A DNA stretch of 52,890 nt, taken from contig JAIRWH010000036.1 of the NCBI GenBank assembly GCA_031253545.1, positions 1-52,890 on the forward strand, written 5' to 3'. A program made the position numbers and the translations under genes. Under the pieces are notes generated by a model. The model did not search any database and had not been told where the DNA came from. It was given only the letters and a program-made list of their open reading frames with translations. Below are positions 5,574-33,432 of this stretch, one piece after another (the stretch's first letter is position 1; each line of letters opens with the position of its first letter). The stretch is from Oscillospiraceae bacterium (GTDB lineage Bacteria > Bacillota > Clostridia > Oscillospirales > UBA929).

Positions 5574-5637
5574 GATACACACTTCCTTTTCGGGCGGTTT
5601 GTGTCAGTATATCACACCCGCCCCGCCCCGCGCAAGG

Positions 5638-14423: not shown

Positions 14424-14427
14424 AAGC

Positions 14428-15477: not shown

Positions 15478-15512
15478 GTCAATACCCCCCGTTGTGTGGC
15501 GCCGGTGCCGCG

Positions 15513-15941
15513 CTAAGAGGTGAAGCGGGCAATAATGGCGCGTATGTCGAGAATCCTGTAAAGTTTTGAGCCGTGCTCGGCGATACCGCCGATAATACCG
15601 CCTCCCGCCAATTCCGCTTCGGGAGGCAAGGGTTGCACGGAACCCGGGTCTACTATCTCGCAAGCCGCGCTGATGAGCAGACCCATTTGGTCGCCGCTCT
15701 CGGTAATATCCTTGAAGACAACCGCGTCGGAAACCGCGCCGGGTTGTTCGCGGCAGGCGCGGCCGAGGAGGGCATCCATGTCGAGGAGCGTGACCACTTT
15801 GCCCCTGATGTTGACAATGCCGGCTATGGTGCTGTCCGCGGCGCGCACGGGTGTCGGCTCCAATCGGCGCATTACCGCCTGCACACACTCAATATCGGCG
15901 GCGTAAAGCTCGCCCGCGGCCACAAAACTCAGCACTCTCAT
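15513..15941 (-). CDS. cheW: CheW adaptor
   Basis: VLSF..GELYA..V..V, PVRAA..IAGIVNIRGKVVTLLDM, ILD. Confidence 0.9.
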   Translation of the reverse strand: MRVLSFVAAGELYAADIECVQAVMRRLEPTPVRAADSTIAGIVNIRGKVVTLLDMDALLGRACREQPGAVSDAVVFKDITESGDQMGLLISAACEIVDPGSVQPLPPEAELAGGGIIGGIAEHGSKLYRILDIRAIIARFTS

Positions 15942-18424
15942 ATTCCGGCCGCCTTTTCCGCTATGGCGCGGCTGTCTAAAAAGACGAGCACTTTTTCGCG
16001 GTATACACCCGTGCCGAGCACAAAGTCGCCCTTGAGCCTGTCCGTTTCAACATGGAAACTGTCGGTCACGAGGTCAAGCACCTTGGAGGAAAGAAAACCC
16101 AATGGCGCGGAAGAATGGTTCACCGTGATGAGATAGAGTTTTTCCGCGTTATGCGCGCGTTTTTGCACGGGCGCGTAGTTTTCCGGCCGCACAACGCGAA
16201 TGGTTTTGCCGCCGACGTTCACATATCGGGCTTTGCCGATTTGCTGAATGTCGCGGGGGGAGATGACCTCGATACGCGAGATATTCTCGGCCCAAAGCGC
16301 GTAATACTCCGCGCCGGAACACTTGAATATGAGCGCTTGCCTGCCGTGCCCGCCGTCGCCGTCCCCTTCCGCGCTCACGGCGGGCGCTTCCTGCGCGAAA
16401 GCATCAAGAGACATGAGGCGAGCTATGCCCTCGGCATCGAGTATGGTAATGGCTCTGCCGTCTCCGAGCACAGTGACTCCGCTGTATATGGGGCAATCCT
16501 TGAAAAAAAACGGAAGCGGCTTGATGAGTGTGCGGATTGTTTCCAACACACTGTCCGCCACAAGGGCGAATGTCCTGCCGGAGGCCTTGAGCACCACGCA
16601 TTTGCAGGTATCGGGAACCGCAAGATACGGAGCGGGCCGCGAGAGAGCTGCGGCGGCTATGCCCTCCACGGTAAAAGCGGGAATAATGCCGCCGTCGAAG
16701 CTGAGCACAAGCGAACCGTTGAGCGTGTCAAGGCGGTGGGAGTGGCTGCCCGGGCGCACAATGCGCTCGACAGCCGTTTCGGGGACGGCATAGCGTATGC
16801 CGTTTGCGGCAACAATAAGAGCGCCGATAACAGACAGCGAGAGCGGCGTTTGCAATCGCATTGTCGTGCCCGTTCCGGGGAAAGAGGAAATATCCGCCCG
16901 GCCGCCGAGCCTTTCGATGTTTGTCTTTACGATGTCCATGCCCACTCCGCGCCCGGAAAGATTGGTCACGCGGGTAGCCGTGGAGATACCGGGTTCGAAT
17001 ATAAGCCTTGCGCTTTCCTCGTCCGACATGGTGTCGAGCTTTTCTTGGGTGATGATGCCGGCGGCAAGGGCTTTCTTTCGGAGCGCGGAGACATCTATGC
17101 CGGCGCCGTCGTCGGAGATTTCCATCACGGCAAACCCGTCGCGCATGAGGGCGGAAAGGGTAATCGTGCCTTTCTCGCTCTTACCGAGAGCCTTGCGGCG
17201 GGCAGGCGGCTCTATGCCGTGGTCCACGGAGTTTTTCACGATTTGCGTAATGGGGTCGGCGAGGGCGTCGAGCAGGTATTTGTCTAACATAACATCGTCG
17301 CCGACTATCTCGACCTGTACGTCCTTACCGAGGGATTTCGCCGTGTCGCGCACAATGCGCGGGAACTTGCCGAAGAGTGTGCCCACAGGTTGCATACGGG
17401 TCTGCATAACCTTTTCCTGCATCTCGTTTGTGAGTCTGGCCACATCGTGGAGTATGGGAGCAAGGCCGGCAATATGCCGCGCGTTTTCCGCCACGGAGGA
17501 GAAAAGGCGGTTGCGGGTAAGTATCATTTCATTGGCAAGGTCCATAAGCCCGTTGATGGTCGAAATGCCGAGCCTGAGCGAAAAGTCACGCTCCGCGGGG
17601 GCAATATTGGCGGCGGGCTGCTCCGGGCGCTCCGGCTTGGCTTCACCCTCGTGGAATGTCTCTTTGGGGATATGGCGTATAAACTTCTTGTCAATCTCGA
17701 TGGCAATGGAGAAGAGCTCGTGCTCCAATACGCTGGCCGAGCAGAACTCCAGCGTGGCGGTGTCGAGCGCGGTAAGGGCTTTCACAAGCTGCTCGGCGGG
17801 TCTTTCGCGCACATCCGTAATATTGCCGTCAACGGCGAGGGCCGCTATGGTGCCCACAGAGAGGATATTGGCGATTATGCCCTCCGGGTGCTTATAGTAT
17901 TTGCCGAGGCTGCGGTCGTAGCCAACGCGTATGTAGTAGAGCTTGTGGCCGAAACGGGCGGCGTCTTTGAGGGATTGCACCACTTCCGGGGAAACAAGGC
18001 CGGGTGTCATAGCCTGTTCGCCGTCTTTCGGTTGCGGCGCGGGTTTTGCGGAATAATCGCGAAAGAGTGCCAACACGCCGTCAATGTCCACGGCATCGTC
18101 GTTGGTGAGGTTGTCAACCAAGACGCGCAGGCAATCCACACCCGCCAACACGGCATCGGTAAGTTCGTCGCTGAGCCTCAAGCGGCCTTCTTTAAGCTGC
18201 GAGAACACATTTTCCAATTCGTGCGCCACAGCCACAATCTTTTTAAGCGAGAAGAAGCCTGCCGTGCCTTTCAGGCTGTGCACGGCGCGAAAGACCGTGT
18301 TTACAAAGCCGGGGGTGGCGGTCGGGGCGGCGGGGTCGAGGAAGGCCGCCTCGATTTTCTCGATATGAGCCTTGGCTTCCGACTCAAAATCGTCGAGGAA
18401 GAGGCCCGTGTCAATCTTTTTCAT
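15938..18424 (-). CDS. cheA: CheA histidine kinase with two C-terminal CheW-like domains
   Basis: Hpt FRAVHSLKG, RMQPVG, KNSVDHGIE, DDGAG, SGRGVGMD, then two CheW-like segments. Confidence 0.95.
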   Translation of the reverse strand: MKKIDTGLFLDDFESEAKAHIEKIEAAFLDPAAPTATPGFVNTVFRAVHSLKGTAGFFSLKKIVAVAHELENVFSQLKEGRLRLSDELTDAVLAGVDCLRVLVDNLTNDDAVDIDGVLALFRDYSAKPAPQPKDGEQAMTPGLVSPEVVQSLKDAARFGHKLYYIRVGYDRSLGKYYKHPEGIIANILSVGTIAALAVDGNITDVRERPAEQLVKALTALDTATLEFCSASVLEHELFSIAIEIDKKFIRHIPKETFHEGEAKPERPEQPAANIAPAERDFSLRLGISTINGLMDLANEMILTRNRLFSSVAENARHIAGLAPILHDVARLTNEMQEKVMQTRMQPVGTLFGKFPRIVRDTAKSLGKDVQVEIVGDDVMLDKYLLDALADPITQIVKNSVDHGIEPPARRKALGKSEKGTITLSALMRDGFAVMEISDDGAGIDVSALRKKALAAGIITQEKLDTMSDEESARLIFEPGISTATRVTNLSGRGVGMDIVKTNIERLGGRADISSFPGTGTTMRLQTPLSLSVIGALIVAANGIRYAVPETAVERIVRPGSHSHRLDTLNGSLVLSFDGGIIPAFTVEGIAAAALSRPAPYLAVPDTCKCVVLKASGRTFALVADSVLETIRTLIKPLPFFFKDCPIYSGVTVLGDGRAITILDAEGIARLMSLDAFAQEAPAVSAEGDGDGGHGRQALIFKCSGAEYYALWAENISRIEVISPRDIQQIGKARYVNVGGKTIRVVRPENYAPVQKRAHNAEKLYLITVNHSSAPLGFLSSKVLDLVTDSFHVETDRLKGDFVLGTGVYREKVLVFLDSRAIAEKAAGI

Positions 18425-18446
18425 AGCGCACCCGATAGCAACGTGA

Positions 18447-19319
18447 TTACAGGCAGTGCTCGGATATAATCGCGAGCAGACTGCGGTAATCCATTGGTTT
18501 CTCTATAAAGCCGTTCATGCCGGCTTTCATGAATTGAGCCACCTCGCCTTCGCTGTTGCTCGCCGTAACCGCCACGATGGGCACATCGCGGGCCTGCGGC
18601 GAGCCGAGCGCCCGAATGGCGCGGGTGGCGTCTAAGCCGTCCATGCCGGGCATATGCACGTCCATGAATATCAGGGCGTAGCGGGCGGGGTCGGACGAAA
18701 ACAGGTCAAGCGCACCCTTGCCGTCTTCGGCAAAATCTAATGACAGCCCGGGGATTTCCGAAAGCATGGCGGCAATAAGGTCTCTGTTGAGTTCCACGTC
18801 GTCCGCCACGAGTATGGCTTTGCCCGCGAGCGCGTTTTCGGGCGTGGAGGCGCGGCGGTCGTGGTGGGCGCGGGCGGAATGGCGCTCGTGTTCGGCGGCG
18901 CGGACACGCAACTTTATGCGGTTGACCAAAGCGCCGGATGTGCCCTGCCTGCGGGCGGAGTAATCCGCGGCACCGAGCGCGAAGGCGGCGGTCTCATCGT
19001 CGTCGTTGCCCTTTTCCGCCAGAAAAATGACGGGGATGCCCGCGCTCTTGACGGAATCATGTATTTCCGCGAACACGCCGAACGCGGTTTCCCTGTTAGG
19101 GCTGATGCAGATGAGTACGGCGGACACGCCGGGCACGCGCAAGGCAGACAGGGCGATTGAGCCGGTGGCGGCAATGCTCACGTCGAAGTGGTCCTTGAGC
19201 TCCTGCTTCAATTCGGCCAAAACCAAGGGTTCGTCGCTGACAATGAGGATACTCTGCTTCTTTGCTCTGCCAAACAAGCGCAAATCACCCCCTCCGTGAC
19301 CATGATGCCGAAGACGCAA
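18447..19319 (-). CDS. Two-receiver protein (N-terminal pseudo-receiver, C-terminal canonical receiver)
   Basis: N-terminal ILIVSDE..AVLICIS lacks the phospho-Asp and Lys. C-terminal ILVADD..FMDVHMP..VTA..EKP is canonical. Start uncertain. Confidence 0.8.
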   Translation of the reverse strand: MRLRHHGHGGGDLRLFGRAKKQSILIVSDEPLVLAELKQELKDHFDVSIAATGSIALSALRVPGVSAVLICISPNRETAFGVFAEIHDSVKSAGIPVIFLAEKGNDDDETAAFALGAADYSARRQGTSGALVNRIKLRVRAAEHERHSARAHHDRRASTPENALAGKAILVADDVELNRDLIAAMLSEIPGLSLDFAEDGKGALDLFSSDPARYALIFMDVHMPGMDGLDATRAIRALGSPQARDVPIVAVTASNSEGEVAQFMKAGMNGFIEKPMDYRSLLAIISEHCL

Positions 19320-20251: not shown

Positions 20252-20614
20252 ATGAAAGTAGCCGTCGTCGGTTCGCGTTCGCTCGGCAGGGAATATTACC
20301 GTTTGCTTGAAGAACACATACCCGCCGAGTGCAGCGAGGTCATAAGCGGCGGCGCGGCGGGCGTGGACCGGCTTGCCAGGGAATATGCCGAAAGCCGCAA
20401 TATCAGCCTCGTGGAGTTCCTGCCCGACTACAAATCATACGAGCGCAGCGCGCCGATTGTGCGCAACGCCGAAATAGTGGCCCGCGCGGACTTGGTACTG
20501 ATTTTCTGGGACGGTTGCTCGAAGGGTTCGCGCAATGTGATTATGACGTGCATCAACACACACAAGCCGTATCGGGTGATACTCTGCAACGGCGGGCAAA
20601 CAGGCGGCATCTGA
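20252..20614 (+). CDS. SLOG superfamily (DUF2493/YspA-like) protein
   Basis: MKVAVVGSR, ISGGAAGVD, RNAEIV, FWDGCSKGS. Confidence 0.85.
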   Translation: MKVAVVGSRSLGREYYRLLEEHIPAECSEVISGGAAGVDRLAREYAESRNISLVEFLPDYKSYERSAPIVRNAEIVARADLVLIFWDGCSKGSRNVIMTCINTHKPYRVILCNGGQTGGI

Positions 20615-20815
20615 GAGAGACCATGATACTGATAACGTTGAAAACGTAAAAGAAATGCCGGGGTGGTCGCCGTGCCCATAGCGCGCGCTGCGGCGGCGTT
20701 CGCGAGGGCGGCGGTACAGATATTACCGTTGCGCGCGGCACAGCTGCGGCAAAACGCGCGGATTCATCCGTTGCCTCTTCCCCAAGACTCGAACATCAAG
20801 CCCCGTAATTTCCGA

Positions 20816-20844
20816 TTGCGTTTTTCCCGCGTTTATTGTACAAT
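20816..20844 (+). promoter_or_regulatory. Sigma70-type promoter of the hydrolase-permease operon
   Basis: TTGCGT-17 bp-TACAAT. Confidence 0.6.
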
Positions 20845-20918
20845 GTTACAACCGAGCCGAAAGACGCGAGCTGCCGCCCGTGTTCGGTTTGGCACGTTAA
20901 TGTCGGGGTGGTGCTTTC

Positions 20919-21434
20919 TTGAAGAAGCTGTTGGTTGTGGTGGATATGCAAAACGACTTTATCTCCGGTTCGCTCGGTTCGCCGCAGGCGCGGGCCATAC
21001 TGCCCGCCGTGAAGGCGAAAATCGAGAGCGGCAAGCGCGGCGGCGACTCTGTCGTATTCACCCGCGACACCCACGGTGCCGATTATCTCGACACGCAAGA
21101 GGGCAAACTCTTGCCGGTGCCGCATTGTATCGCCGGAACACAAGGCCATGAGATAACTTCCGAGCTCGATACCGGCGGGTGCGCCGTGGTGGATAAGCCC
21201 GCCTTCGGTTCCGCGGAGCTCGCCGCGCTGGCGGCCGAAGGCGACTACGGCGAAATTGAGCTGTGCGGCCTTTGCACGGACATCTGTGTTGTCTCAAACG
21301 CGCTGATTCTCAAGGCCCGATTGCCGGAGACGCCCATTCGCGTGGACGCGCGCTGCTGCGCGGGCGTGACCGAGGAAAGCCACCGCGCCGCCCTGCTTAC
21401 CATGAAGATGTGCCAGGTACTCATTACCGAATGA
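20919..21434 (+). CDS. Isochorismatase-family cysteine hydrolase, nicotinamidase-like
   Basis: VVDMQNDF, DTH, PHC, DKPAFGS and GLCTDICV give the Asp-Lys-Cys triad and PncA-type metal ligands. Confidence 0.88.
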   Translation: MKKLLVVVDMQNDFISGSLGSPQARAILPAVKAKIESGKRGGDSVVFTRDTHGADYLDTQEGKLLPVPHCIAGTQGHEITSELDTGGCAVVDKPAFGSAELAALAAEGDYGEIELCGLCTDICVVSNALILKARLPETPIRVDARCCAGVTEESHRAALLTMKMCQVLITE

Positions 21435-21454
21435 CAATAAAAGGAGACCATGAC

Positions 21455-22786
21455 ATGAGCAAGAAAACAAAAAAAGACGTTGCGGCAGGGTATCTGCCGG
21501 ACGAGACTCCGTCGCCCGGCAAGCTGATTGTCTTCGCGTTCCAGCAGCTGTTGGTCATGTTCCCTGCCACGGTGACCGTGGCGCTGCTCACGGGCTTCCA
21601 TGTGTCCACCACGATTTTCGCCAGCGGCCTTGCCACATTGTGCTTCCTATTCATCACAAAAGGCAAGATACCCCTCTATTACGGCTCCAGCTTTTCCTAC
21701 ATAGCGGCCGTGACGGGCATTACCTCCGCCACATTCGGCGAGGTCGCCGCAAACGAGCTCATCGGCAAGGCTCAGTTCGGCATCATCTTTTCGGGTCTTG
21801 TCTCCATAGTGGCGGGGTTGATTGTCACGCGTTTCGGCATGTCCACCATCGAAAAGGTTCTGCCGCCCACGGTGACCGGCTCCATCGCGCTCGTCATCGG
21901 CATATCCCTCGCGGGCGTGGCGCTGACCGGCGCCGTGGGTTACGGCGACGGCGCGCTGTCGCCGGATTCGGACAGGATGTGGATAGCCGCGTTGGTCACG
22001 TTAGTGGCCACGGTGGTCTTTTCCGTCTACCTAAAGGGTGTGCTCGGCCAGCTGCCCATACTGTTCGGCATTATGGTGGGCTATGTGGTGGCCGTGTCGC
22101 TCGACCTTGTGGACTTTTCCGGCGTTTTTGCCGGCAGGGTGGTGGATTTGCCGCACTTCACGCTCCCCGTGCCGGACGGCGTGGCCGTGCTTGCCATCAT
22201 GCCCATCGCCATAGCCACGATACCCGAATCCACGGCGCACTTGTTCCAGCTGGATATATACGTCAACAACCTCGCGAAATTGAAAGGCAAAGGCGAATAC
22301 AAGATTGCCGACAAATTGGGCATCAACCTCATCGGCGACGGCGTGGGCGACATTGTGGCCTCGGCCTTCGGCGGCCCCGGCGGCACGAACTACGGCGAGA
22401 ATATCTCCACGATGGCCATCACCAAAAACTTCTCGGTGAAAATGCTCGGCACAGCCGCGATTATGGCCATGGTGCTCGCGTTTGTCACCCCTCTCTCGAA
22501 TATCATCAACACCGTGCCCGCGGCGGTAATCAACGGCGCGTGTATCTTCCTCTTCGGGGTTATAGCCGCGCAGGGCATCGCCATCATGATAAACAAGAAG
22601 GTGGATATGTTTGACGCGCGGAACCTCGCGGTTATCGCCGTCATACTTATCATCGGCTTAGGCGGGCACTATGGCTTTTCCGGCGGTATGATACCCTTCT
22701 TCGGCGCGAAACTTCCCGCCATCGCCACGGCGGCCATCGCGGGCATCGTTGTCAACGCGTTGCTCTCGGTCGGCAGGAAAACATGA
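21455..22786 (+). CDS. NCS2 (uracil/xanthine-type) permease
   Basis: GSSFSY, PPTVTG, GGPGGTNYGEN signature, LFGVIA, many TM segments. AAGGAG RBS upstream. Confidence 0.92.
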   Translation: MSKKTKKDVAAGYLPDETPSPGKLIVFAFQQLLVMFPATVTVALLTGFHVSTTIFASGLATLCFLFITKGKIPLYYGSSFSYIAAVTGITSATFGEVAANELIGKAQFGIIFSGLVSIVAGLIVTRFGMSTIEKVLPPTVTGSIALVIGISLAGVALTGAVGYGDGALSPDSDRMWIAALVTLVATVVFSVYLKGVLGQLPILFGIMVGYVVAVSLDLVDFSGVFAGRVVDLPHFTLPVPDGVAVLAIMPIAIATIPESTAHLFQLDIYVNNLAKLKGKGEYKIADKLGINLIGDGVGDIVASAFGGPGGTNYGENISTMAITKNFSVKMLGTAAIMAMVLAFVTPLSNIINTVPAAVINGACIFLFGVIAAQGIAIMINKKVDMFDARNLAVIAVILIIGLGGHYGFSGGMIPFFGAKLPAIATAAIAGIVVNALLSVGRKT

Positions 22787-22847
22787 AGACCCCGCCGCCC
22801 TGCCGTAGCCCTCTATCTCCGGCCACGCCCGGCGCGCGGAAGAGGGT

Positions 22848-25800
22848 ATGATACAGGTTATAAAAAACAATCCGGATAAATGCACGGGCTGCAACAGGTG
22901 CGTGCGCGAGTGCCCGGTGAAGACAGCCAACGTAACCTACCAAGACGAGGCGGAAAGCGTCAAGGTAAAGGTAGACAAGGCGAAGTGCGTCAACTGCGGG
23001 CGCTGTGTGTCGGCTTGTAAGCATGGGGCGCGCTATTATGAAGACGATACCGCGCGCTTTTTCCGCGACTTGGCGGCGGGTGAAAACATCTCACTCATAG
23101 CGGCCCCTTCGGTGCGGGTCAATATACCGCACTATAAACGACTGTTTACGTTTCTCAAAAACGCGGGCGTGAAGAAAATCTTCGATGTTTCCTTGGGCGC
23201 GGATATTTGCATATGGGCGCATGTGCGCCATCTTGAAAGGCATACGCGGGAGAAAATCATCACCCAGCCGTGCCCCGCGGTGGTCTTGTATTGCGAAAAA
23301 TATAAGCCCGAGCTGTTGCCGCGCCTTTCGCCCGTCCATAGCCCCATGGCCTGCACGGCGGTATATATGCGCACGTACAAAGGCGCGGACGGTGCCATAG
23401 CGGCGCTCTCGCCGTGCATAGCGAAAGCCGCGGAGTTCGCGTCCACAAAGTTGGTGCAATACAACGTCACGTTTGCCAAACTGAGCGAATATATCCGCGA
23501 CAACGGTATCGCGCTGCCTGCGGAGGAGAGCGGCTACGACCACCCCGATGCCGATTTGGGCTCGCTCTTTCCCTCGCCGGGAGGCTTGAAAGAAAACTTG
23601 GAGTTTCACCTCGGCGCCTCCGTGAGCATAGACAAAGCCGAGGGTTTCGGCATATATGAAAACTTGGACTTGTATTCGGAAACCCGCGACACCATGCTTC
23701 CGGAGGTGTTTGACATCCTCAACTGCGAGAACGGGTGCAGCGCGGGGCCGGCCTCCTCGTTTTCCGAAAGCCCGTTTGTCGTGGCAAGAGCTATGGATAA
23801 ACGGCGCAAACGAATGAGCGCGCGGCAGCGAAGGGACTATTATCAAATGCTCTACGACGAATACGATGCCATGTTTGATTTGCGCGACTTTATGAGGGAA
23901 TACGATAAGGGCGGCCATGAACCCCTCCGCGTGATTACGGACGAAGACACGGAGCAGGCGTTTTTACGCCTGCACAAATACACCCGCGAACAGCGCAACG
24001 TAGATTGCGGCGCCTGCGGCAACAAAACCTGCCACGATATGGCGCGCCAAATTGCGGCGGGGGTCAATATCCCGATAAACTGCATGGTAAAAGCGATGGA
24101 GACCGCAAAGGCCGAACACGAAAGCAACGTCAATTCGTTGGAGCAATTCAAGACGATATGGCATAACGTGGAAAGCGGCATTGTAATTACAGACGCGCAA
24201 ACGCGCGCCGTGATTGACGTCAACCCCGCGGCGGAGCGTATGCTCGGCTATGATAAGTCGCAGATGACGGGCAAAAGCTGCGCGGAGCTTTTCTGCAAAA
24301 ACGGCTGCCCCATTACCGATAACGCGCGCGCGGCAAACCGTTTGGAGCAAACGCTTTACAGGTCCGACGGCTCGGCGTTCCCCGTATTGAAGTCGGTGTC
24401 CGAGATTACATATAACGGCAAAAGCGCCCTGCTCGAAAGTTTTTCGGATATAACCTACCTGAAAGAAGTGGAAAAACAAAAGCGTATGCTTGAAGTGGCC
24501 GAACACGCGAGTTTGGCCAAAAGCAGCTTCCTTTCGGGCATGAGCCACGAAATCCGCACCCCCATGAACGCCATTATCGGCATGACGCAGATTGCGGCGA
24601 AAACCGACGAGACGGAGAAACTCAAATACTGCCTTTCGAGCATAGAAAGCTCGTCCGCCCACTTGCTCGGACTGATTAACGACATACTCGACATATCCAA
24701 AATCGAGGCGGGTATGCTGGAGCTTGACGACACGGAGATAAACATAGAGGAAACGCTCTCAAACGTTTGCGCCCTTGTGACCGAGAAAGCCGAACAAAAG
24801 AGCCTGCGGTTTTTCGTCGGAATCGGCAAGGGCATAAAGACGCGCTATATGGGCGACGGGCTGCGCCTCTCGCAAGTGCTGACCAACCTGCTGTCCAACG
24901 CCGTGAAGTTTACGGGCGCGGGCGGCAAGATTGAACTGACGGCGGACGAGATACGCGGCGGCGAGAGCGCGGTGCTGCGTTTTGCCGTGAGCGACACGGG
25001 GGTGGGCATATCCGAAGAGCACCTGGAAAAACTCTTTACCGCGTTTGTGCAGGCGGAAAGCAGTACCGCCCGTGAATACGGCGGCACAGGGCTGGGGCTT
25101 GCCATATCAAAGAACATAGTGGAAAAAATGGGCGGCAGGATATGGGTGGATTCCCGGCCGGGCAGCGGCTCCGTGTTCAGCTTTGAGGTCAGGCTCAAAC
25201 GACTCGGCGGTTCCAAAGCGGCGGCGGCCTACGACACCGCGAGCATGGCGGACGCAAGGCTTCTCTATGTGGGCACCGACGCGTTGGCGAGGGATTACTT
25301 CAGGGCAAGCGCGGATTACCTGGGCGTTGGTTGCGTGGACGCGGCCGAGAGCGTAACGCGCGCCTTGGCCCTGGCGACGGCGGCAAGGGGGCAAGGCCGC
25401 CCGTATACCGCCGCGTTCGCGGATTGCGCTCTTGTGGACGAGGGCAGCATAGCCTATTTGCGTGAAAACGGCTTCAAGTTCAACAACAACGTGGTCGTCA
25501 TAGCCTCCTTCTTTAACAGAGACAGGCTTGATGCCATGTTGCAAGGCGTGGATACCGTCCGGTTTCTCTCCAAACCCCTCTTCCCCTCGCCGCTTTACAG
25601 GGTAATCGCGGAAATCCTCCACAAGGAGTCGATTACGCTCACCGCCGAGGAATCCGGCGGCGCGAATACCCCGGACTTTTCGGCCCTCACGTTGCTCCTT
25701 GCCGAAGACGTGGAAATCGGCAGGGAAATATTTATCGCCTTGCTCGAACCCACGGGCATAAAAATCCGCGCCGCTGAAAACGGCGCGGAAGCCGTGGAGA

Positions 25801-26087
25801 TGTTTCGCGCCGACCCCGATACATACGACATCATTATCATGGACGTGCAAATGCCGCGAATGGACGGCTACGACGCCACGCGAGCCATACGCGCGCTCGG
25901 CACGGAGAAGGCCGCGCATATTCCGATTATCGCCATGACCGCCAATGTGTTTCGCGAAGACGTGGAAAAGTGCCTGCAAGCCGGCATGGACGACCACTTG
26001 GCGAAGCCCATTGAGGCGGGCAAGACCATTGCGAAGATAATGTACTATTGCGTAACAAAGCCGGGAAGCGGGGGCGGTGTCCCGTGA
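22848..26087 (+). CDS. Hybrid histidine kinase: 2[4Fe-4S] + [FeFe]-hydrogenase-like domain + FeS + PAS + HisKA/HATPase + pseudo-REC + REC
   Basis: CTGCNRCVREC and CVNCGRCVSAC; H-cluster-like TQPCP, SPCIAKAAE and DILNCENGCSAG; DCGACGNKTC; PAS VNPAAERMLGY; SHEIRTPMN; GGTGLGL; MDVQMP. Confidence 0.9.
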   Translation: MIQVIKNNPDKCTGCNRCVRECPVKTANVTYQDEAESVKVKVDKAKCVNCGRCVSACKHGARYYEDDTARFFRDLAAGENISLIAAPSVRVNIPHYKRLFTFLKNAGVKKIFDVSLGADICIWAHVRHLERHTREKIITQPCPAVVLYCEKYKPELLPRLSPVHSPMACTAVYMRTYKGADGAIAALSPCIAKAAEFASTKLVQYNVTFAKLSEYIRDNGIALPAEESGYDHPDADLGSLFPSPGGLKENLEFHLGASVSIDKAEGFGIYENLDLYSETRDTMLPEVFDILNCENGCSAGPASSFSESPFVVARAMDKRRKRMSARQRRDYYQMLYDEYDAMFDLRDFMREYDKGGHEPLRVITDEDTEQAFLRLHKYTREQRNVDCGACGNKTCHDMARQIAAGVNIPINCMVKAMETAKAEHESNVNSLEQFKTIWHNVESGIVITDAQTRAVIDVNPAAERMLGYDKSQMTGKSCAELFCKNGCPITDNARAANRLEQTLYRSDGSAFPVLKSVSEITYNGKSALLESFSDITYLKEVEKQKRMLEVAEHASLAKSSFLSGMSHEIRTPMNAIIGMTQIAAKTDETEKLKYCLSSIESSSAHLLGLINDILDISKIEAGMLELDDTEINIEETLSNVCALVTEKAEQKSLRFFVGIGKGIKTRYMGDGLRLSQVLTNLLSNAVKFTGAGGKIELTADEIRGGESAVLRFAVSDTGVGISEEHLEKLFTAFVQAESSTAREYGGTGLGLAISKNIVEKMGGRIWVDSRPGSGSVFSFEVRLKRLGGSKAAAAYDTASMADARLLYVGTDALARDYFRASADYLGVGCVDAAESVTRALALATAARGQGRPYTAAFADCALVDEGSIAYLRENGFKFNNNVVVIASFFNRDRLDAMLQGVDTVRFLSKPLFPSPLYRVIAEILHKESITLTAEESGGANTPDFSALTLLLAEDVEIGREIFIALLEPTGIKIRAAENGAEAVEMFRADPDTYDIIIMDVQMPRMDGYDATRAIRALGTEKAAHIPIIAMTANVFREDVEKCLQAGMDDHLAKPIEAGKTIAKIMYYCVTKPGSGGGVP

Positions 26088-28585
26088 CGCGCAAGAAGCC
26101 CAAGGGGCCGATGTACCCCATCGTGGCGCTGCTTTTTGCGGTGACGCTGGCCGTTATCGGCTTTGTGACGCGCTTTCAGACCAACGCCATTATCGAAAGG
26201 CTCACCTTTGCCCAAGCGCAGACCGCCAACCGCGCGTTCGCCAACTACATAAAAGAGTTGGAAGACAGAGCCATGCAGAGGGCGGAACTTGTGTCCCGCG
26301 ACGAATCTGTCGTCGCCGCGCTCACGCGCGGCGACGGCGAAACGCTTGGCGGTATTGCGGCAAACTTCGCTTTGGGCATGGACCTTGTCAGTATCAGCGA
26401 CAGCAACGGGGCGGTGCTTGCCGCCTCCGAGAGCAATTCGGAGGCGCGCGACCTTTCGGCCCACACCGTAATCAGGCACGTGCTGCAGACCGGAGAAAAA
26501 TCCGCCTCCGTGGCGAAGAACCTGTCCACAGACAGGCTTGCCGTGGCGGCTTGCGCCCCGGTATACAACGGCGGCGTTATCGCGGGTATTGTAAAGTGTG
26601 AGTTCGACCTTTCCAGGCAAGACTTCGTGGACGAGTTTAAGAGTCAGATGGGATGCGAGGCCACCGTGTTTCAAGACAGCCTCAGGCTCAGCACCACCAT
26701 GACCGACCGCGCCGGCCGCCGCATTATCGGTACCGCGGCGCAAGACTCCGTGAAAGAAGCCGTGCTCGGCAGAGGCGAATCGTATGTCGGTGTGTTAGAG
26801 ATATTCGATAAGGCTTACGCCGTGTGCTATTCGCCGATGGTGGTCAATTCCGCCATTGAGGGTATGCTGTATACCGGCATTGAGATAGACGCGATACTGT
26901 CTTCGCAGCGCGTTATGAACTTTTGGATAATATTGGCGGCGGCGTTTGGCATATCCGCCACGAGCGTGTTTATGGTGATAACGGGCGTGACCACGAAGAA
27001 ATACAATATCGCCGTGGAAAACGAAATGCGGCAGCAGGCTCGCATTATTGCAATGGAACGCCAGTCGGCCATCGTGGAAAAATCGCCGCATATTATATTC
27101 TACACCAACAGAAACTGCGATATTATCTACGCGAACCCCGCCGCCGCCGCGCTTTCGGGTTACACGGAAGACGAACTGGTTGCCGGCGGCATCGGTCTGG
27201 TCTTCGACGCGCAGACGGTGAAAAAAATCAAAACCGAGTATCTGCCCGCCACCATAAAGGAGGGCGTGGACAATCGCGAATTGCCGCTCTATCGCAAAGA
27301 CGGCCAAAAGCGTATGCTCGAACTGCGGAGCTTCACCGTGAACGAGGGCGATATAGCCGTGACCGCCGCGGATGTCACGGAGACCCGCGTTTTAGAAAGC
27401 GAATTGATTGCGGCAAAAGACCGGGCGGAAAAGGCTAATTCGGCAAAAAGCGAGTTTTTGTCGCGCATGAGCCACGAGATGAGAACCCCAATGAACGCCA
27501 TTATCGGCATGACCGAGCTTGCGAAAAAATCGGCCGGGGGCGAGAAAACGGCGGGCTACCTCGGAAGCATACACGAAGCGTCGCGTCATTTGCTGCGGAT
27601 AATAGACGATATATTGGATATGACGCAAATTGAGAGCGGGAAGATAGAATTGCGCTACCACGGCTTCGATTTCGGCAAAATGATAACCGATGCCGCGGAG
27701 ATTACGCGCTTCGACGCAGACAAAAAGCGCCATACGCTCAGCGTGGACGCGGCAGGCTGCGCGGGGCGGTATGTGTTGTGCGACGAGCGCCGCTTGAAGC
27801 AGGTTATCGTCAATCTGCTTTCCAACGCCGTGAAGTTTACCCCGCCGGACGGTGCCGTGCGCCTGACCGCGCGCTTACTGAAAGACGAAGGCGCGTTATA
27901 CGCCGCGGAAATTGCCGTGGAAGACAACGGCATGGGTATATCCGAAGACGTGCGGCATAAGCTGTTCACGCCGTTTGAGCAGGTAGACGGCGGTGTGTCG
28001 CGCAAGCACGGAGGCACGGGTCTGGGTCTTGCCGTCGCCGCGCGCATAGTAGAGAAAATGGGCGGCAAGGTCAGCGTATCCTCCAAACTCGGCCAAGGGT
28101 CAAGGTTCAGCTTCACCATACCACTCAAAGAAAGCGAAGGGCCCGCCGCCCCCGGCGGCGATACCGCGTCGGAGAAGGCGGCCGTCTCCGAGCCGCGCGC
28201 GATACTCATGGCCGAGGACGTGGAGATAAACAGGCAGATAGTGGAGGAATTGCTCGGGGGCACGGGCATTACGGTGGACATGGCCGAAAACGGGCGGCAG
28301 GCTTATGAAATGCATAAAGCCGACCCCGAGAGATACGGCCTTATCCTCATGGACATCAATATGCCGGAGATGGACGGTTACACGGCCACCCGCCATATAC
28401 GCGCCCTCGGGGCGGAAGGCGGGGGCAATGTGCCCGTTATCGCGCTGACGGCGAATATGTTTACCGAGGATGTGGAGAAATGCATGAAGGCAGGCATGGA
28501 CGCGCATATCGGCAAGCCGATTGACCCTGCGGCGCTGTTTGCCATGCTTAATAGATTTATGGACAAAACGCGCGGCGATATATGA
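26084..28585 (+). CDS. Membrane hybrid histidine kinase: Cache-like sensor, PAS, HisKA/HATPase, REC
   Basis: Two TM helices flank EATVF..RLSTT..GRRIIGT..Y.P..GMLYTG. Also YANPAA..SGY, SHEMRTPMN and MDINMP. GTG start overlaps the upstream TGA. Confidence 0.9.
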   Translation: MTRKKPKGPMYPIVALLFAVTLAVIGFVTRFQTNAIIERLTFAQAQTANRAFANYIKELEDRAMQRAELVSRDESVVAALTRGDGETLGGIAANFALGMDLVSISDSNGAVLAASESNSEARDLSAHTVIRHVLQTGEKSASVAKNLSTDRLAVAACAPVYNGGVIAGIVKCEFDLSRQDFVDEFKSQMGCEATVFQDSLRLSTTMTDRAGRRIIGTAAQDSVKEAVLGRGESYVGVLEIFDKAYAVCYSPMVVNSAIEGMLYTGIEIDAILSSQRVMNFWIILAAAFGISATSVFMVITGVTTKKYNIAVENEMRQQARIIAMERQSAIVEKSPHIIFYTNRNCDIIYANPAAAALSGYTEDELVAGGIGLVFDAQTVKKIKTEYLPATIKEGVDNRELPLYRKDGQKRMLELRSFTVNEGDIAVTAADVTETRVLESELIAAKDRAEKANSAKSEFLSRMSHEMRTPMNAIIGMTELAKKSAGGEKTAGYLGSIHEASRHLLRIIDDILDMTQIESGKIELRYHGFDFGKMITDAAEITRFDADKKRHTLSVDAAGCAGRYVLCDERRLKQVIVNLLSNAVKFTPPDGAVRLTARLLKDEGALYAAEIAVEDNGMGISEDVRHKLFTPFEQVDGGVSRKHGGTGLGLAVAARIVEKMGGKVSVSSKLGQGSRFSFTIPLKESEGPAAPGGDTASEKAAVSEPRAILMAEDVEINRQIVEELLGGTGITVDMAENGRQAYEMHKADPERYGLILMDINMPEMDGYTATRHIRALGAEGGGNVPVIALTANMFTEDVEKCMKAGMDAHIGKPIDPAALFAMLNRFMDKTRGDI

Positions 28586-28610
28586 TATATATGGAAAGGG
28601 GCGGGCGAGA

Positions 28611-29450
28611 TTGAAAAACGACTATCTGCTGTCTATCAGAGAGTTTTCGGAGCTCACGGACTTCAGCCTCACAAAGCTGCGCCACTACGACGATGTGGAG
28701 TTGTTTCAGCCGGTGTTTCGCGCGGATAACGGCTACCGCTATTACTCCGCCTTGCAAAGCATTACCATCAACTGCATCAACGTAATGAAAAGCGTGCAGC
28801 TGCCGATTAAGAAAATCAACGACATCATGAAGAAGCGGACACCGGAGAAAATCCTCGATTTTCTGAGCAAGCACGAGGTGGAGCTCAACGCCGAACTCTT
28901 CAAGCTGCAGCAGGCCTACGCGATTATCCATACTTATGTGACGCTCATACAGGAAGGTTTGCAGGCGGACGAACAAAAAATCGCCTGCCGCCGGATGGAA
29001 GCCACGCCGATAGAGATAGGCCCGCGCAATGATTTCTCCGGCAAGCGGTTCAACGACAGCTTCTTCGCGTTTTTGCAGGAAATGAGAAAACGCAGGGTAG
29101 ACTCCGCCTACCCCGCCGGCGCCTGCTACACAAGCATGGATTCGCTCCGCGAAAACCCCGGCCGCCCGGAATACTTCTTCGCGCATACGCCCGCGGGCAG
29201 AGACTTGAAGGAAAAGGGCGACTATTTGGTGGGTTACGCAAGGGGTTATTACGGCGACTTGGGCGATTTGCCGCAACGCTTGGAGGCCTACGCGAAAGCT
29301 CACGGCATGGTATTCAACGGCCCGGTGTACGAAGATTACCTCCACAACGAACTGACCGAGGAAAACCCCGATAGGTACCTCATACGCGTGGCGGCGAAGG
29401 TGAGGCATCAAAAATCGCGCCACTCCGCCTCATCGCCTAATCCGAAATAG
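28611..29450 (+). CDS. MerR-family regulator with a GyrI-like effector domain
   Basis: LSIREFS..LRHYD..LFQP..NGYRYYS and C-terminal GPVYEDYL. Confidence 0.9.
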   Translation: MKNDYLLSIREFSELTDFSLTKLRHYDDVELFQPVFRADNGYRYYSALQSITINCINVMKSVQLPIKKINDIMKKRTPEKILDFLSKHEVELNAELFKLQQAYAIIHTYVTLIQEGLQADEQKIACRRMEATPIEIGPRNDFSGKRFNDSFFAFLQEMRKRRVDSAYPAGACYTSMDSLRENPGRPEYFFAHTPAGRDLKEKGDYLVGYARGYYGDLGDLPQRLEAYAKAHGMVFNGPVYEDYLHNELTEENPDRYLIRVAAKVRHQKSRHSASSPNPK

Positions 29451-29653
29451 CCCCTCCCGCGCCGCGTGAAAGCGCGGATACTGCCGCCCTCATTCCCGCC
29501 CGCCCGTCGGGGGTGCGGGAACATGTGTGCGGACACAGCCAAAGAAACATCTCCCGCTATGTTCTCCGGCAGCGGACGGGGAACGCGCCTTTCGGGCAAG
29601 ACCGAGGGACTGCTCCCCCCGCCCCCCCGCCCCCGTCCCCTAACCACCAACCG

Positions 29654-30976
29654 CTAACGAACCCTGTTTACCCCAAACTGAAAGAGTACCCTGTTGTGCA
29701 GATATGCCTTTCCGTTTATGAGCGTTTCGCGCCCTAAATAATCCCCCGTCCAAAACTTCCCGTCCGATGCCCAGCGGTCGCTGTTGAACTCCACGCGCAT
29801 CATAATCGCCTCCGGGGGCAGCGAAAACAGCATCTCACAGGGGAACTGCCCGCCCGGCATGATTTTCACAAGCCGTTCGGAGGGTACTATATATGAGCAA
29901 AGCTCCGCGGAGCCGTCGGGCATCACGGCATAAACAAGGAAATTAGGCGTGTTTTTGTCTAAGTGAAGCAACAGCGGCGGGTTGTCTTTGCCGTTTTCCC
30001 AGAAGAAGGACAAAAGCATGCCGCCGTCTTTGCCCGGTTCGGCGCTTTCCAATGTGACAAAGCAGCCGTCCAACAGGGCGGTCTCGCCCACCTTGTGCGT
30101 GGTAACGAGCGTCTGCTCGGACGTGAGGGGATATGGCTGCCACGGGTTTTCCTCGGCCTCGCGCCGCAGCTGCCCCGCCAGCGTGAGCAACGCCACGGCG
30201 GCCGCGAGAGTAAACGCGGCGAGCGGGCGCAGCACGGGCCGCGCCGCCCTCAGGCCGGGCAAGTCGCGCAAGTCCGCCGCGTCGTCGCCGCGCACCGCCG
30301 GTCTGATATACACGCCGCAAAGCTCTTCAACGCGCGCGAGCAACTCCGGGCTGCCTTCGTAATAGAGCGGTATATCCAAATAAACCTCGCCGTCCTTGCG
30401 TTTGCCGGACGGCGGCAGGCGGGTCATTCCCTGCGGCAGACCCGTCTTGCCGGGAGGGGGTTTGCGGCTACATTCCTCGTCAAAGCGCCCGTATACGCGC
30501 AGGCGCTTGAAGGCTCTGTCGTAATCCGCGCGCGCAACCTTTTCGTAGGGCATGGTCCAATGGTAACTTTCCCGCTTCCGGGGCAGCCTGCCCGCCGCGT
30601 CAAGCGAATATATCAGTTCGTCCTCCCGCAAAAGGAGCACTTCTTTCGAGGCTTTGTCCCAACACGTAAAATGCCCGCGAAAATATACCGCCCCGTAAAG
30701 CAGCGCCACAAAGCACACAGACAGCAAGAGCAGCCAAAAGCCCGCCATAACAAGGGGCTCGGCTCTTAAAAGCCGCCCAAACAGAAGATAGGAAACCGCC
30801 GCCGAGGCGAAAGCCGCCGAGCAACCGTAGACCCTCAGCCGCCGCCACAGGGCGAAACCCGGATGCCTCATTCTTGCCGCCTGCAATATTTTCGCCCTGC
30901 GGGCCTTGTCGGGCTTGTACTCCGCCGCCGCGGCAAGCCCCCCTCCCGTCGCCGGGCACGATGCGCCTTGCGTCAT
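29654..30976 (-). CDS. Hypothetical membrane protein (about three TM segments)
   Basis: 440-aa ORF with hydrophobic segments and a probable extracytoplasmic C-terminal domain. Overlaps the upstream ORF by 4 bp. Confidence 0.7.
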   Translation of the reverse strand: MTQGASCPATGGGLAAAAEYKPDKARRAKILQAARMRHPGFALWRRLRVYGCSAAFASAAVSYLLFGRLLRAEPLVMAGFWLLLLSVCFVALLYGAVYFRGHFTCWDKASKEVLLLREDELIYSLDAAGRLPRKRESYHWTMPYEKVARADYDRAFKRLRVYGRFDEECSRKPPPGKTGLPQGMTRLPPSGKRKDGEVYLDIPLYYEGSPELLARVEELCGVYIRPAVRGDDAADLRDLPGLRAARPVLRPLAAFTLAAAVALLTLAGQLRREAEENPWQPYPLTSEQTLVTTHKVGETALLDGCFVTLESAEPGKDGGMLLSFFWENGKDNPPLLLHLDKNTPNFLVYAVMPDGSAELCSYIVPSERLVKIMPGGQFPCEMLFSLPPEAIMMRVEFNSDRWASDGKFWTGDYLGRETLINGKAYLHNRVLFQFGVNRVR

Positions 30977-31675: not shown

Positions 31676-33133
31676 TCACGACGCGGCGGCGATTACCGCG
31701 TTATACAGCGCCGCCTTCGGCGTATCCACGGCCGAAAACAGCAGCGGCGTATATCTGCCGCGCCATGACATACCGTCGTGCAGACCCCACATGGTCACGG
31801 ACGTGATGTTCGCGCCCGCTTTTTTCTTGTCCGCCAGCAGCTTAAACAGCGCGCCGTAATAGGCGGCCTGGTCCGCCTCCGTCCTTGTGCCGGACGACCA
31901 TTGGCCGTTTAGCGTCACGTCCAATTCGGTAATCTGTATCTCATAGCCCTCCGCTTGGAACCTGTCTATCGTGGTGCCGATGGCGGCTACGGACGGGTAG
32001 CTCACGTCAAGGTGCATCTGCATACCCACGCCGTCGCAATAGCGGCCTTCGGCGTTGATTTCACCGATGAGGCTGATGATGCCGCCTGTGACCTCATATT
32101 CGTTGTAGTCGTTGTAAAACAGGCTCACGCGCTCGCGCAGGCCAAGCTCCGTGAGCGCCTCGTGGGCGTACTTGAACGCGGAGACCACAAAGTCGTTTTT
32201 GTTGCCGTAGATTCTGTTCCACCCGCCTTGCCTGTTGCTGTGGAGGTGCTCGTTCACCACGTCCCAGGCGTATACCACGCCGCCGTAGGGGCCTTGGTAC
32301 ACAAGTTTGATTACGCTCTTGACATACATCTCCAAGCGCCGCTCCATAACCTCCCGCGCCACATCGGAGCCGCCGGCGGCGTAGCCTTCCTTGAAGAGCC
32401 TCTCCGGCGTTTGGCTGTGCCACACAAGGGTGTGGTAACGCACGCCGAGGTTATTCTCATACGCGATTTTCAAGAATCTGTTGATACGGTCAATATTCAG
32501 CTCCGGCACATGGGTTTCGGCGTAGTCCGCCGGGATATGGTACCCGCGCTGCGCGGCCTCCTGCACGGTAATGAGCGTATTGCCCACGATATAGTCGGGC
32601 TTCATCTCGTTTTCCGGCGTGACGCTGTTGTAGTGCTTGAGCGTGAACGCGAGGGGCTCGCCCTGCATGACCGTGGGCGTGGCCCAATGGTAGTTGTATG
32701 TGGCCGCGCCGATGTGGCCGAATATGGGCGCGTAGACATCTTTCAGGCTCACGTTTGTCGGCGGCGCGGCCGACGGGGAAGGCGAGGGCGAAGGCGACGG
32801 GGAAGGCGAGGGCGAGGGCGGCCTTTGCTCCGAAGGGCTTGGGGAAGGCGAGGGCGAGGGCGAGGGGGAGGGGGAAGGCGAATCCTGCGGCGAGGGCGAA
32901 GGTTCCCCTGCCGACGGCGCCGGCTCCCCGCTTTGCGTCGGGTCGGTGTCCGAGGGCGAGGGGTCGCCCGGCTGGCTCGGCGCGCTGCCGGACGGGCTCT
33001 CGCCCGGCGATGCCTGCGAGGACGAGGGCGAGGACGACGGCGAGGGGCTGCCCGCCGGCGAGGGCGATGGCGACACGCCGCAAGCGGCAAGCAGCACGGC
33101 GAGGGCGAGGGCAAACAGGGTAATCTTCCTCAT
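31676..33133 (-). CDS. GH10 endo-1,4-beta-xylanase lipoprotein with a Ser/Pro linker
   Basis: Lipobox LAAC; TPENEMKP, HTLVWHSQTP, WDVVNE (acid/base), YNDYN, ITELD (nucleophile), SWR. Confidence 0.93.
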   Translation of the reverse strand: MRKITLFALALAVLLAACGVSPSPSPAGSPSPSSSPSSSQASPGESPSGSAPSQPGDPSPSDTDPTQSGEPAPSAGEPSPSPQDSPSPSPSPSPSPSPSPSEQRPPSPSPSPSPSPSPSPSAAPPTNVSLKDVYAPIFGHIGAATYNYHWATPTVMQGEPLAFTLKHYNSVTPENEMKPDYIVGNTLITVQEAAQRGYHIPADYAETHVPELNIDRINRFLKIAYENNLGVRYHTLVWHSQTPERLFKEGYAAGGSDVAREVMERRLEMYVKSVIKLVYQGPYGGVVYAWDVVNEHLHSNRQGGWNRIYGNKNDFVVSAFKYAHEALTELGLRERVSLFYNDYNEYEVTGGIISLIGEINAEGRYCDGVGMQMHLDVSYPSVAAIGTTIDRFQAEGYEIQITELDVTLNGQWSSGTRTEADQAAYYGALFKLLADKKKAGANITSVTMWGLHDGMSWRGRYTPLLFSAVDTPKAALYNAVIAAAS

Positions 33134-33361
33134 ACGGCGCACAACCTTTACCGTTATTTTCCGCGATGACCGATGATGAAGTGTAACACAAAAAGGCGCG
33201 GGCGCGCAAGGGGGGTTTCCGCTTGCAATCTGCGGGCTATTGCACAAGCGCGATACCACAAGGCAATTCCATTCCCGCCGCGTCCACAGGGAGTTACGGC
33301 CTCGCCGGGCTGCCCGCGGGCGCTCATGCGCGGCTGTCGCATACAAAAACGGACGCGCCGC

Positions 33362-33389
33362 GCAACATTTCGCCCCTTTCGGGCGTATA
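33362..33389 (+). promoter_or_regulatory. Putative ECF-type autoregulatory promoter
   Basis: GCAACA-16 bp-CGTATA. A close relative precedes the second ECF gene. Confidence 0.55.
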
Positions 33390-33432
33390 TAGGGTATAGG
33401 CAGGTTTTTGACAAACCGCGCGTAAGACGGAG

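Follow-up and report, generated by a model that had tools for sequence, protein, structure and literature searches.

A soluble hybrid histidine kinase with a putative sensory [FeFe]-hydrogenase input module in an Oscillospiraceae genome

Domain order and H-cluster pocket of P0001

The window analyzed was a stretch of 52,890 nucleotides (nt) from an Oscillospiraceae bacterium (assembly GCA_031253545.1, contig JAIRWH010000036.1), and the gene of interest was the open reading frame (ORF) at 22848..26087 on its forward strand. The frame was intact and uninterrupted and encoded a protein of 1079 amino acids (aa), here called P0001; amino-acid numbers refer to this protein. A GAAGAGGG stretch, Shine-Dalgarno-like by eye, was found 3 nt upstream of the P0001 ATG. 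Judged from its sequence, P0001 would be a cytoplasmic sensor kinase with a sensory-type (HydS-like) [FeFe]-hydrogenase input, sensing either H2 or redox state; this reading was given a probability of roughly 0.6.

P0001 carried ferredoxin-like, hydrogenase, PAS, kinase and receiver domains in a single chain (Table 1). Pfam recognized the N-terminal domain as a Fer4 dicluster at aa 5-62. The accessory iron-sulfur (Fe-S) motif behind the H-domain matched PF04060 at aa 385-412 with 21.4 bits, slightly below the 23-bit cut-off, and PAS_9 was placed at aa 443-536 (E 2e-11). The H-box SHEIRTP contained His567, and the nucleotide-binding boxes DTGVGI and GGTGLGL were visible in the translation. With its H-box His, HATPase_c boxes and receiver acceptor Asp, P0001 is, by motif content, a hybrid histidine kinase of the HisKA type. 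Sequence searches of aa 795-950 against Pfam and the PDB returned no match, and hhalign comparison of aa 801-910 with the family's receiver domain gave a probability of 99.6% (E 8e-25).

As the preliminary description of this locus had noted, no transmembrane (TM) helix was evident: the top 19-residue Kyte-Doolittle mean of P0001 was 1.24, compared with 2.43 in the membrane-anchored kinase encoded next to it. An AlphaFold2 model of aa 1-545 had a predicted local distance difference test score (pLDDT) of 81.5 and a predicted template-modeling score (pTM) of 0.70. Foldseek searches with this model returned solved [FeFe]-hydrogenases first (8a6t_A, E 8.6e-20; CbA5H; TmHydABC; CpI 4xdc_B, E 7e-16), and a PDB sequence search agreed. 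These E-values, taken together with the conservation among homologues described below, are far beyond chance. In the same model a long predicted helix at aa 410-440 led into the PAS domain.

The pocket was compared by alignment with the canonical HydA of the same genome (TSCCPAW / MPCTAKKFE / EVMACAGGC), with which the three P0001 motifs shared their columns. All four ligand cysteines of the H-cluster (C142, C190, C293, C297) were retained. Under CpI numbering, Pro141 stood at Cys299, the proton-relay position, and Ser188 and Leu291 stood at Met353 and Met497. The acidic relay residues present in the aligned canonical HydA were missing from P0001. The places given earlier for the motifs were thus borne out, as were the kept cysteines, the replacement of the proton-transfer Cys and both Met residues, the extra FeS motif (C387-x2-C390-x4-C395-x16-C412) and the Cys-rich PAS segment.

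Loss of Cys299, Met353 and Met497 is described as a hallmark of sensory group C/D enzymes (PMC8163306, PMC10407848), and Cx2Cx4Cx16C as a common mark of sensory M2e/M2f enzymes (PMC8163306). Of the HydS-type features, P0001 showed the four ligand cysteines, the loss of Cys299, Met353 and Met497, two N-terminal [4Fe-4S] motifs, the Cx2Cx4Cx16C motif and a PAS domain following it, the last as in group C (M2f).

Table 1. Positions in the window of P0001, its domains and motifs, and the adjacent kinase gene.
Feature	Position	Strand	Evidence
P0001, soluble sensory-hydrogenase / PAS / hybrid histidine kinase	22848..26087	+	ORF, translation, Pfam domains
Ferredoxin-like N-terminal domain, two CxxCxxCxxxC motifs (C12, 15, 18, 22; C47, 50, 53, 57)	22860..23033	+	Pfam Fer4/Fer4_7
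H-domain Fe_hyd_lg_C, aa 82-301	23091..23750	+	Pfam E 7e-29; same place in genome search; fold match
Motif 1 TQPCP, aa 139-143: Pro141 at the proton-relay Cys299 position, Cys142 cluster ligand	23262..23276	+	Alignment
Motif 2 SPCIAKAAE, aa 188-196: Ser188 where CpI has Met353, ligand Cys190, with Lys193 and Glu196 retained	23409..23435	+	Alignment
Motif 3 DILNCENGCSAG, aa 289-300: Asp289 in place of Glu, Leu291 where CpI has Met497, ligands Cys293 and Cys297	23712..23747	+	Alignment
Accessory [4Fe-4S] motif Cx2Cx4Cx16C (C387, C390, C395, C412), typical of HydS proteins	24006..24083	+	Motif, Pfam PF04060
PAS domain, aa 432-536	24141..24455	+	Pfam PAS_9/PAS_8/PAS
PAS cysteine triad C478-x4-C483-x3-C487	24279..24308	+	Motif position
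Kinase core: HisKA aa 557-622, HATPase_c aa 669-784	24516..25199	+	Pfam E 2e-18, 5e-32
Divergent receiver-like domain, aa 801-910	25248..25577	+	hhalign
Canonical receiver Response_reg, aa 950-1063, Asp999 in MDVQMP	25695..26036	+	Pfam E 3e-24
P0002, Cache/PAS hybrid histidine kinase (dCache/sCache_3, PAS, HisKA, HATPase, REC), one N-terminal TM segment	26048..28585	+	Pfam

Distribution, outputs and known relatives of the module

A search with aa 1-540 of P0001 gave 1427 matches among 7999 scored candidates. P0001 and the best 119 homologues (top identity 58%), nearly all of which showed a hydrogenase-plus-kinase domain list, formed an alignment of 120 rows. The four H-cluster cysteines, Lys193 and Asp289 were each present in 120 of 120 rows, and Glu196 in 119. 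Position 141 (CpI 299) was Pro in 119 rows, position 188 (CpI 353) was Ser in 110 and Thr in the other 10, and position 291 (CpI 497) was Leu in 119. The pocket that the preliminary description called rewired is not special to P0001 and is the fixed signature of a large clade. Ala86, Pro87 and Trp123 were likewise found in 120/120 rows. In CpI, the positions of Lys193 and Ala86-Pro87 are those that hold the cyanide ligands on the [2Fe] subsite. The cysteines of Cx2Cx4Cx16C were kept in 118-120 of the 120 rows. Ferredoxin motif 2 was kept in all 120, and motif 1 in 98-101, with a gap in 19-21 rows that possibly reflects 5'-shortened gene calls.

A scan of one genome per species yielded at least 601 pattern matches and at least 479 confirmed relatives. 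Among the best 80 species-genome loci, [S/T]PCxxKxxE and DxLxCxxGC were each found in 80/80 and QPC[P/A] in 79/80. Hosts among the matches listed included Oscillospiraceae, Lachnospiraceae, Treponema, Fibrobacterota, Synergistaceae, Desulfovibrionaceae, Cloacimonadota, Pseudomonadota and others; two isolates, Desulfosporosinus acididurans M1 and Desulfocucumis palustris NAW-5, were also among the matches listed. Going by these alignments, the P0001 pocket is a near-invariant signature of a large, multi-phylum clade.

Hydrogenase-type ORFs from the P0001 genome and from relatives of its order were sorted by signature as comparison H-domains. Group A proteins were about 590-660 aa long and carried TSCCP / MPC / GGV / ExMxC. 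Short M2e-like proteins (416-446 aa) carried SSACP / (S,T)PCPAK / GGE, and PAS-type M2f-like proteins (557-590 aa) carried CTACP or SSCCH / GPCxxKK. The P0001 clade, in which length depends on the output, carried (T,S)QPCP / SPCxAK..EF / PGGL / DxLxCxxGCN. Over aa 1-451, P0001 was 38-56% identical to nine clade members of relatives and 20-27% identical to 15 other H-domains (three group A, four PAS-type and eight short M2e-type). A FastTree phylogeny of 103 rows contained a clade of 88 rows (support 99, branch 1.35) and was used for grouping only, the tool having warned of long branches meeting at the clade base.

Two of these sets stood in for the characterized sensors TmHydS and TamHydS. The M2e-like set resembled published group D in having Ala299, a hydroxyl residue in place of Met353 and Glu following GG. 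In the M2f-like set, compared with TmHydS, Ala299 was found in two of four proteins (CTACP; the other two had SSCCH) and Gly353 in all four. P0001 clustered with neither stand-in, showing 20-27% identity to them and falling in the separate clade with support 99. By this sequence grouping, the P0001 clade is a Pro299 clade, sister to sensors fused to methyl-accepting chemotaxis protein (MCP) domains and separate from the clades of both characterized enzymes.

Among the matches listed, the closest relatives of the module, 51-57% identical, belonged to Bacillota, Spirochaetota, Fibrobacterota, Acidobacteriota (Holophagales) and Pseudomonadota, and they were intermixed in the tree (loci with them include L047-L062, L083, L084, L087 and L090). 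This pattern suggests repeated horizontal transfer of the sensor gene. The closest relatives of P0001, 52-58% identical, likewise came from several phyla, which would fit acquisition by transfer.

Several outputs were joined to the module. In related genomes of the order, Pfam showed seven clade members ending in an MCP signaling domain and two ending in PAS-HisKA-HATPase-REC. The best 80 species-genome loci comprised about 54 MCP forms, 21 kinase forms, two GGDEF forms and three that were cut or unclear, as labeled by profiles built for this analysis and corrected by Pfam; 12 of the approximately 54 MCP labels were checked by Pfam (seven in relatives and five among the species loci). A Pfam check of 13 species loci confirmed five of five MCP forms and five of five complete kinase forms. 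The two GGDEF diguanylate cyclase fusions (L054:1093-2856 and L059:7935-10328) were in a Fibrimonadaceae metagenome-assembled genome and an Oxalobacter genome. A label combining MCP, histidine kinase and receiver domains, given to four proteins, was rejected: the MCP profile had cross-matched coiled coils, and Pfam found no MCPsignal in any of them. Three were complete kinase forms (L052, L087, L081), and the fourth (L049) was cut by its contig, with the output domain not seen.

Most kinase forms grouped in the tree into a single sub-clade nested among MCP forms, whose 26 rows comprised 23 kinase, two GGDEF and one truncated; the kinase form L081 lay outside it. With one input joined to three standard signaling outputs (MCP, kinase and GGDEF), the unit behaves as a portable sensor module.

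The PAS cysteines varied within the clade. Among 118 kinase-fused homologues with the C-terminal motif, 47 had C-x4-C-x4-C, 27 had the outer pair alone and 43 had neither; the spacing of P0001, shorter by one residue, was unique to it within those 118. The triad was present in 4 of the 21 species-genome kinase forms. These counts mark the PAS cysteines as a sub-family feature that is apparently dispensable for the clade. On this pattern the PAS core may house a metal, Fe-S or disulfide site; the AlphaFold2 model was weakest at aa 481-500 around the triad (mean pLDDT 60-62). The nearest solved sequences to the P0001 PAS were LOV-type PAS domains (YtvA, E 4e-5). A LOV or flavin reading was rejected, as the Arg and Gln with which LOV domains bind flavin are not present. 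By eye, Cys478 may fall near the LOV cysteine.

HydDB lists two sensory [FeFe] groups of this general type, C1 "histidine kinase-linked (putative)" and C2 "chemotactic (putative)" (Sondergaard et al., 2016; PMC5037454). Kinase-linked sensory [FeFe]-hydrogenases were therefore already catalogued as group C1, and the preliminary description had overstated their novelty. P0001 resembles C1 in coupling a HydS-type module to histidine-kinase signaling with a putative H2-sensing role. It differs in that its H-domain is nearest to MCP-fused proteins and its gene is not beside a hydrogenase. A fused HATPase_c is noted in Hydrogenedentota C1 proteins (PMC11406978), and "linked" can denote a neighboring kinase gene, for example in Vallitalea (PMC6163223). 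The MCP-fused proteins seen here would correspond to C2, going by architecture. P0001 shares with them the H-domain clade, 38-45% identity to the seven MCP-fused proteins of relatives, the QPC[P/A] / SPC / DxL signature and Cx2Cx4Cx16C, and the kinase forms nest among the MCP forms; its output, however, consists of PAS, HisKA, HATPase and two receivers rather than MCPsignal. P0001 would thus be C1-like by kinase architecture and C2-like by nearest H-domains, an assignment made by architecture and not by classifier.

TmHydS shares with P0001 two N-terminal clusters, the H-domain, Cx2Cx4Cx16C followed by PAS, and replacement at 299, 353 and 497, as described in PMC8163306 and PMC10407848. Its residues at these positions are Ala, Gly and Ser, whereas P0001 has Pro, Ser and Leu, and TmHydS has no kinase. 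The TmHydS-like proteins (CTACP, GPCxxKK) of the P0001 genome and its relatives were just 24-27% identical to P0001. TamHydS, as described in PMC8163306, has Ser for Met353, Leu for Met497 and the C-terminal cluster motif, as in P0001. It differs in Ala137 at the 299 position, where P0001 has Pro, and has neither PAS nor a kinase. The proton path proposed for group D starts at TamHydS Glu252, read here as the residue after the GG motif; M2e-like proteins of relatives, 20-24% identical to P0001, had GGE at this site and the P0001 clade had GGL. The regulatory [NiFe]-hydrogenase HoxBC with its kinase HoxJ, of the HydDB [NiFe] group 2b "histidine kinase-linked" (PMC5037454), offers an analogy only. 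There, a hydrogenase with slow turnover signals H2 to a two-component histidine kinase that bears a PAS domain; metal site and fold are unrelated, and sensor and kinase are separate polypeptides.

P0001 is of a known kind, catalogued since 2016 and widespread; its particulars are the Pro299 clade, the sub-family PAS cysteines and a host in which the known maturases were not found. Studies by Ballor, Paulsen and Leadbetter in 2012, on hydrogen sensors of termite-gut treponemes, and by Greening et al. in 2016, in ISME J, may already describe kinase-, MCP- or GGDEF-fused forms. The fixed Pro at the proton-relay position of the clade is, so far as the literature found goes, a natural variant new to study.

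Maturation genes and the proposed function

In the proposed mechanism, the module would change conformation when H2 binds to the H-cluster or is split there heterolytically, or when the ferredoxin/H2 pool reduces the Fe-S chain. Electrons could enter P0001 via its N-terminal clusters. The C-terminal cluster domain and the aa 410-440 helix would relay this change to PAS and to the dimerization helices, shifting autophosphorylation at His567. From His567 the phosphoryl group would then go to the terminal receiver, at Asp999, and afterwards to an HPt protein and a response regulator. TmHydS and TamHydS lend support to this reading: both are reported to bind an H-cluster and to react with H2 despite lacking Cys299, Met353 and Met497, with slow turnover and stabilized reduced states (PMC8163306, PMC10407848). 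The weakest step of this explanation is that P0001 carries the [2Fe] subsite, because none of the three maturases was seen in the genome.

Four intact hydrogenase-type genes were found in the genome: two encode catalytic subunits of the HydABC type, one a HydS accompanied by a PP2C phosphatase, and the fourth is P0001. A check for hydE, hydF and hydG, which the preliminary description had proposed, came back negative. TIGR03956 (HydE) and TIGR03955 (HydG) had no match in the genome at E <= 0.001. TIGR03918 (HydF) gave GTPase-domain matches only, with a maximum of 83.5 bits against a cut-off of 325.55, and tblastn with the cluster-encoded HydE, HydG and HydF of relatives found nothing further. 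The genome is 97% complete in 96 contigs, and absence of the maturases is therefore not proven.

The same gap was seen more widely. PF02906 matches were present in 31/31 genomes of the order searched (the P0001 genome, G000, and G001-G030). HydE, HydF and HydG passed their cut-offs together in the same 11 genomes and in no others, leaving 20 without them, including the P0001 genome and the 100% complete G021 and G030. Among the eight order genomes verified to hold the P0001 clade, two (G006 and G013) had all three maturases. In a class-wide sample of 300 genomes, 13 held the P0001-type module; of these, HydG was present in 8 of the 12 other than the P0001 genome. HydG was present in 125 of 200 class genomes, and 6 of 10 chosen good-quality HydG-negative class genomes had a PF02906 match of at least 300 bits.

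Hydrogenases without HydEFG are reported for archaea and some protists, where an alternative maturation route has been proposed (PMC11216029). A non-exhaustive literature search found no report of bacteria holding HydA without HydEFG. Tentatively, these Clostridia may either build [2Fe] by another route or have H-domain proteins, P0001 included, that function without it. If confirmed on closed genomes, the maturase gap would extend the "hydrogenase without HydEFG" puzzle from archaea and protists to common anaerobic Clostridia.

Several results weigh against the proposed H2- or redox-sensing kinase. With the three maturases not found, the [2Fe] subsite would not be makeable here via the known route. 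Position 299 is given as Ala in both studied sensors and as Pro in neither (PMC10407848), and no biochemical characterization of any P0001-clade member was found in the literature. In TamHydS, the best-studied relative, the C-terminal cluster is reported as not reduced under H2 (PMC13104023). No HPt domain was present in the Pfam scan of P0001; the genome had nine HPt matches, eight above cut-off, all within open frames of 430-1215 aa. HydA, HydB or HydC was found within 8 kb of 0 of 22 kinase-fused loci, and the neighbors of these loci included no conserved partner. A P0001 orthologue was not found in two genomes of the same genus (94% and 82% complete). Of the one-polypeptide H2/redox-sensing kinase in the preliminary description, the soluble HydS/PAS/hybrid-kinase architecture stood, and the maturase result weakened "H2 sensor" relative to "redox/Fe-S sensor".

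The leading alternative, possible and held at well under an even chance, is an Fe-S redox sensor in which the H-domain holds the [4Fe-4S] cubane only, with three accessory clusters, and signals how reduced the ferredoxin pool is, or O2 or NO damage, rather than H2. It accords with the negative maturase search, with a full maturase set in just two of the eight module-holding genomes of the order, with the absent proton relay and with the frequency of PAS-core cysteines in the kinase-fused subfamily (triad in 47/118), which could be a second redox site. The bridging cysteine and the residues at the cyanide-ligand positions were nevertheless invariant, which is unexpected for cubane-only binding. 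Some source of [2Fe] may exist, given that the genome keeps a canonical HydA requiring it, and elsewhere in the class the module was mostly found alongside HydG (8/12).

Decay of the gene is far less probable. A relic freed of selection by loss of the maturases would explain why these were not found, why the two genomes of the same genus yielded no orthologue and why P0001 alone has a PAS triad one residue shorter. The 1079-codon frame is intact, however; every cluster ligand and the catalytic motifs of kinase and receiver are present, and the match to the family signature is complete position by position. A working hydrogenase turning over H2 at a useful rate, with the kinase part secondary, is the least probable account: P0001 has the H-domain fold with all its cluster ligands, and TamHydS and TmHydS are reported to retain measurable activity (PMC8163306), but Cys299 is replaced by Pro, the aligned acidic relay residues are missing, electron-transfer partner genes are not nearby, and the MCP and GGDEF fusions of the module make sense only for a sensor. 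Taken jointly, catalysis and decay remain improbable.

For the sensor-kinase reading, the union of sensor and kinase in one chain offers a direct read-out, namely autophosphorylation with versus without H2. The P0001 clade would make a practical model for [FeFe]-type H2-sensor signaling, for which any of its hundreds of members would be equally suitable.

Genome context and neighboring genes

Upstream of P0001 lay a gene for a xanthine/uracil-type permease. Downstream were a MerR-like gene and P0002, which encodes a membrane-bound hybrid kinase of the Cache/PAS type. The longest P0002 frame overlapped the 3' end of P0001 by 40 nt, and the true start of P0002 is probably the ATG at 26111. Among the 22 kinase-fused loci, the upstream permease was found in none, the downstream MerR-like gene in none and a P0002-like Cache kinase in three. 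With a Cache kinase adjacent in just 3/22, the tie of P0002 to P0001 is weak, and, with neighbors that are not conserved across the 22 loci, gene context does not allow a regulon to be inferred. Scans of positions 20500-30000 gave 8 promoter and 17 terminator sites, where shuffled sequences gave 5.3 +/- 2.5 and 12.8 +/- 4.1 respectively, and were set aside as providing no usable operon boundary.

Two HydC-HydB-HydA clusters were found elsewhere in the genome, on contigs C76 and C95. The C76 locus (L016:1-7305, reverse strand) encoded AdhE, HydC, HydB, the canonical HydA (660 aa), HydS and, truncated where the contig ends, a SpoIIE/PP2C phosphatase. This HydS was TmHydS-like, 557 aa long, with CTACP and GPCAAKKAE. 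Together with the PP2C gene it forms the classic phosphatase-linked arrangement and, on sequence features, a second, conventional candidate H2 sensor in the genome. That candidate stands beside the hydrogenase on C76, and P0001 probably controls something else.

The HydA of the C95 cluster (L017:7479-9257, forward strand) had the motif 1 TSCSPGW, with Ser at the [4Fe-4S] ligand Cys300, and canonical motifs 2 and 3. TSCSPGW was present in 12 of 13 C95-HydA orthologues examined across the order (L127-L138), in genomes with and without maturases.

A chemotaxis-like cluster lay at 12714-19319 on the reverse strand of the window, encoding CheX, CheR, CheB, CheA (HPt, dimerization, HATPase and CheW-like domains) and a 290-aa protein with a C-terminal receiver. 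This CheA was one of the frames with an HPt match in the genome. Neither an MCP nor a separate CheW was seen among the ORFs scanned in the cluster. A link between P0001 and this cluster, 3.5 kb upstream on the opposite strand, was considered as the sister proteins of P0001 are MCP-fused; it was dropped, no supporting evidence having been found.

Two further loci were observed in the window. A 649-aa protein with DUF6273 at its C-terminus was encoded at 3633-5582 on the reverse strand. A GH10 xylanase gene followed by a gene for an extracytoplasmic function (ECF)-type sigma factor lay at 31676-33451, also on the reverse strand. The DUF6273 protein and the xylanase/ECF pair are ordinary for an anaerobe degrading plant fiber.

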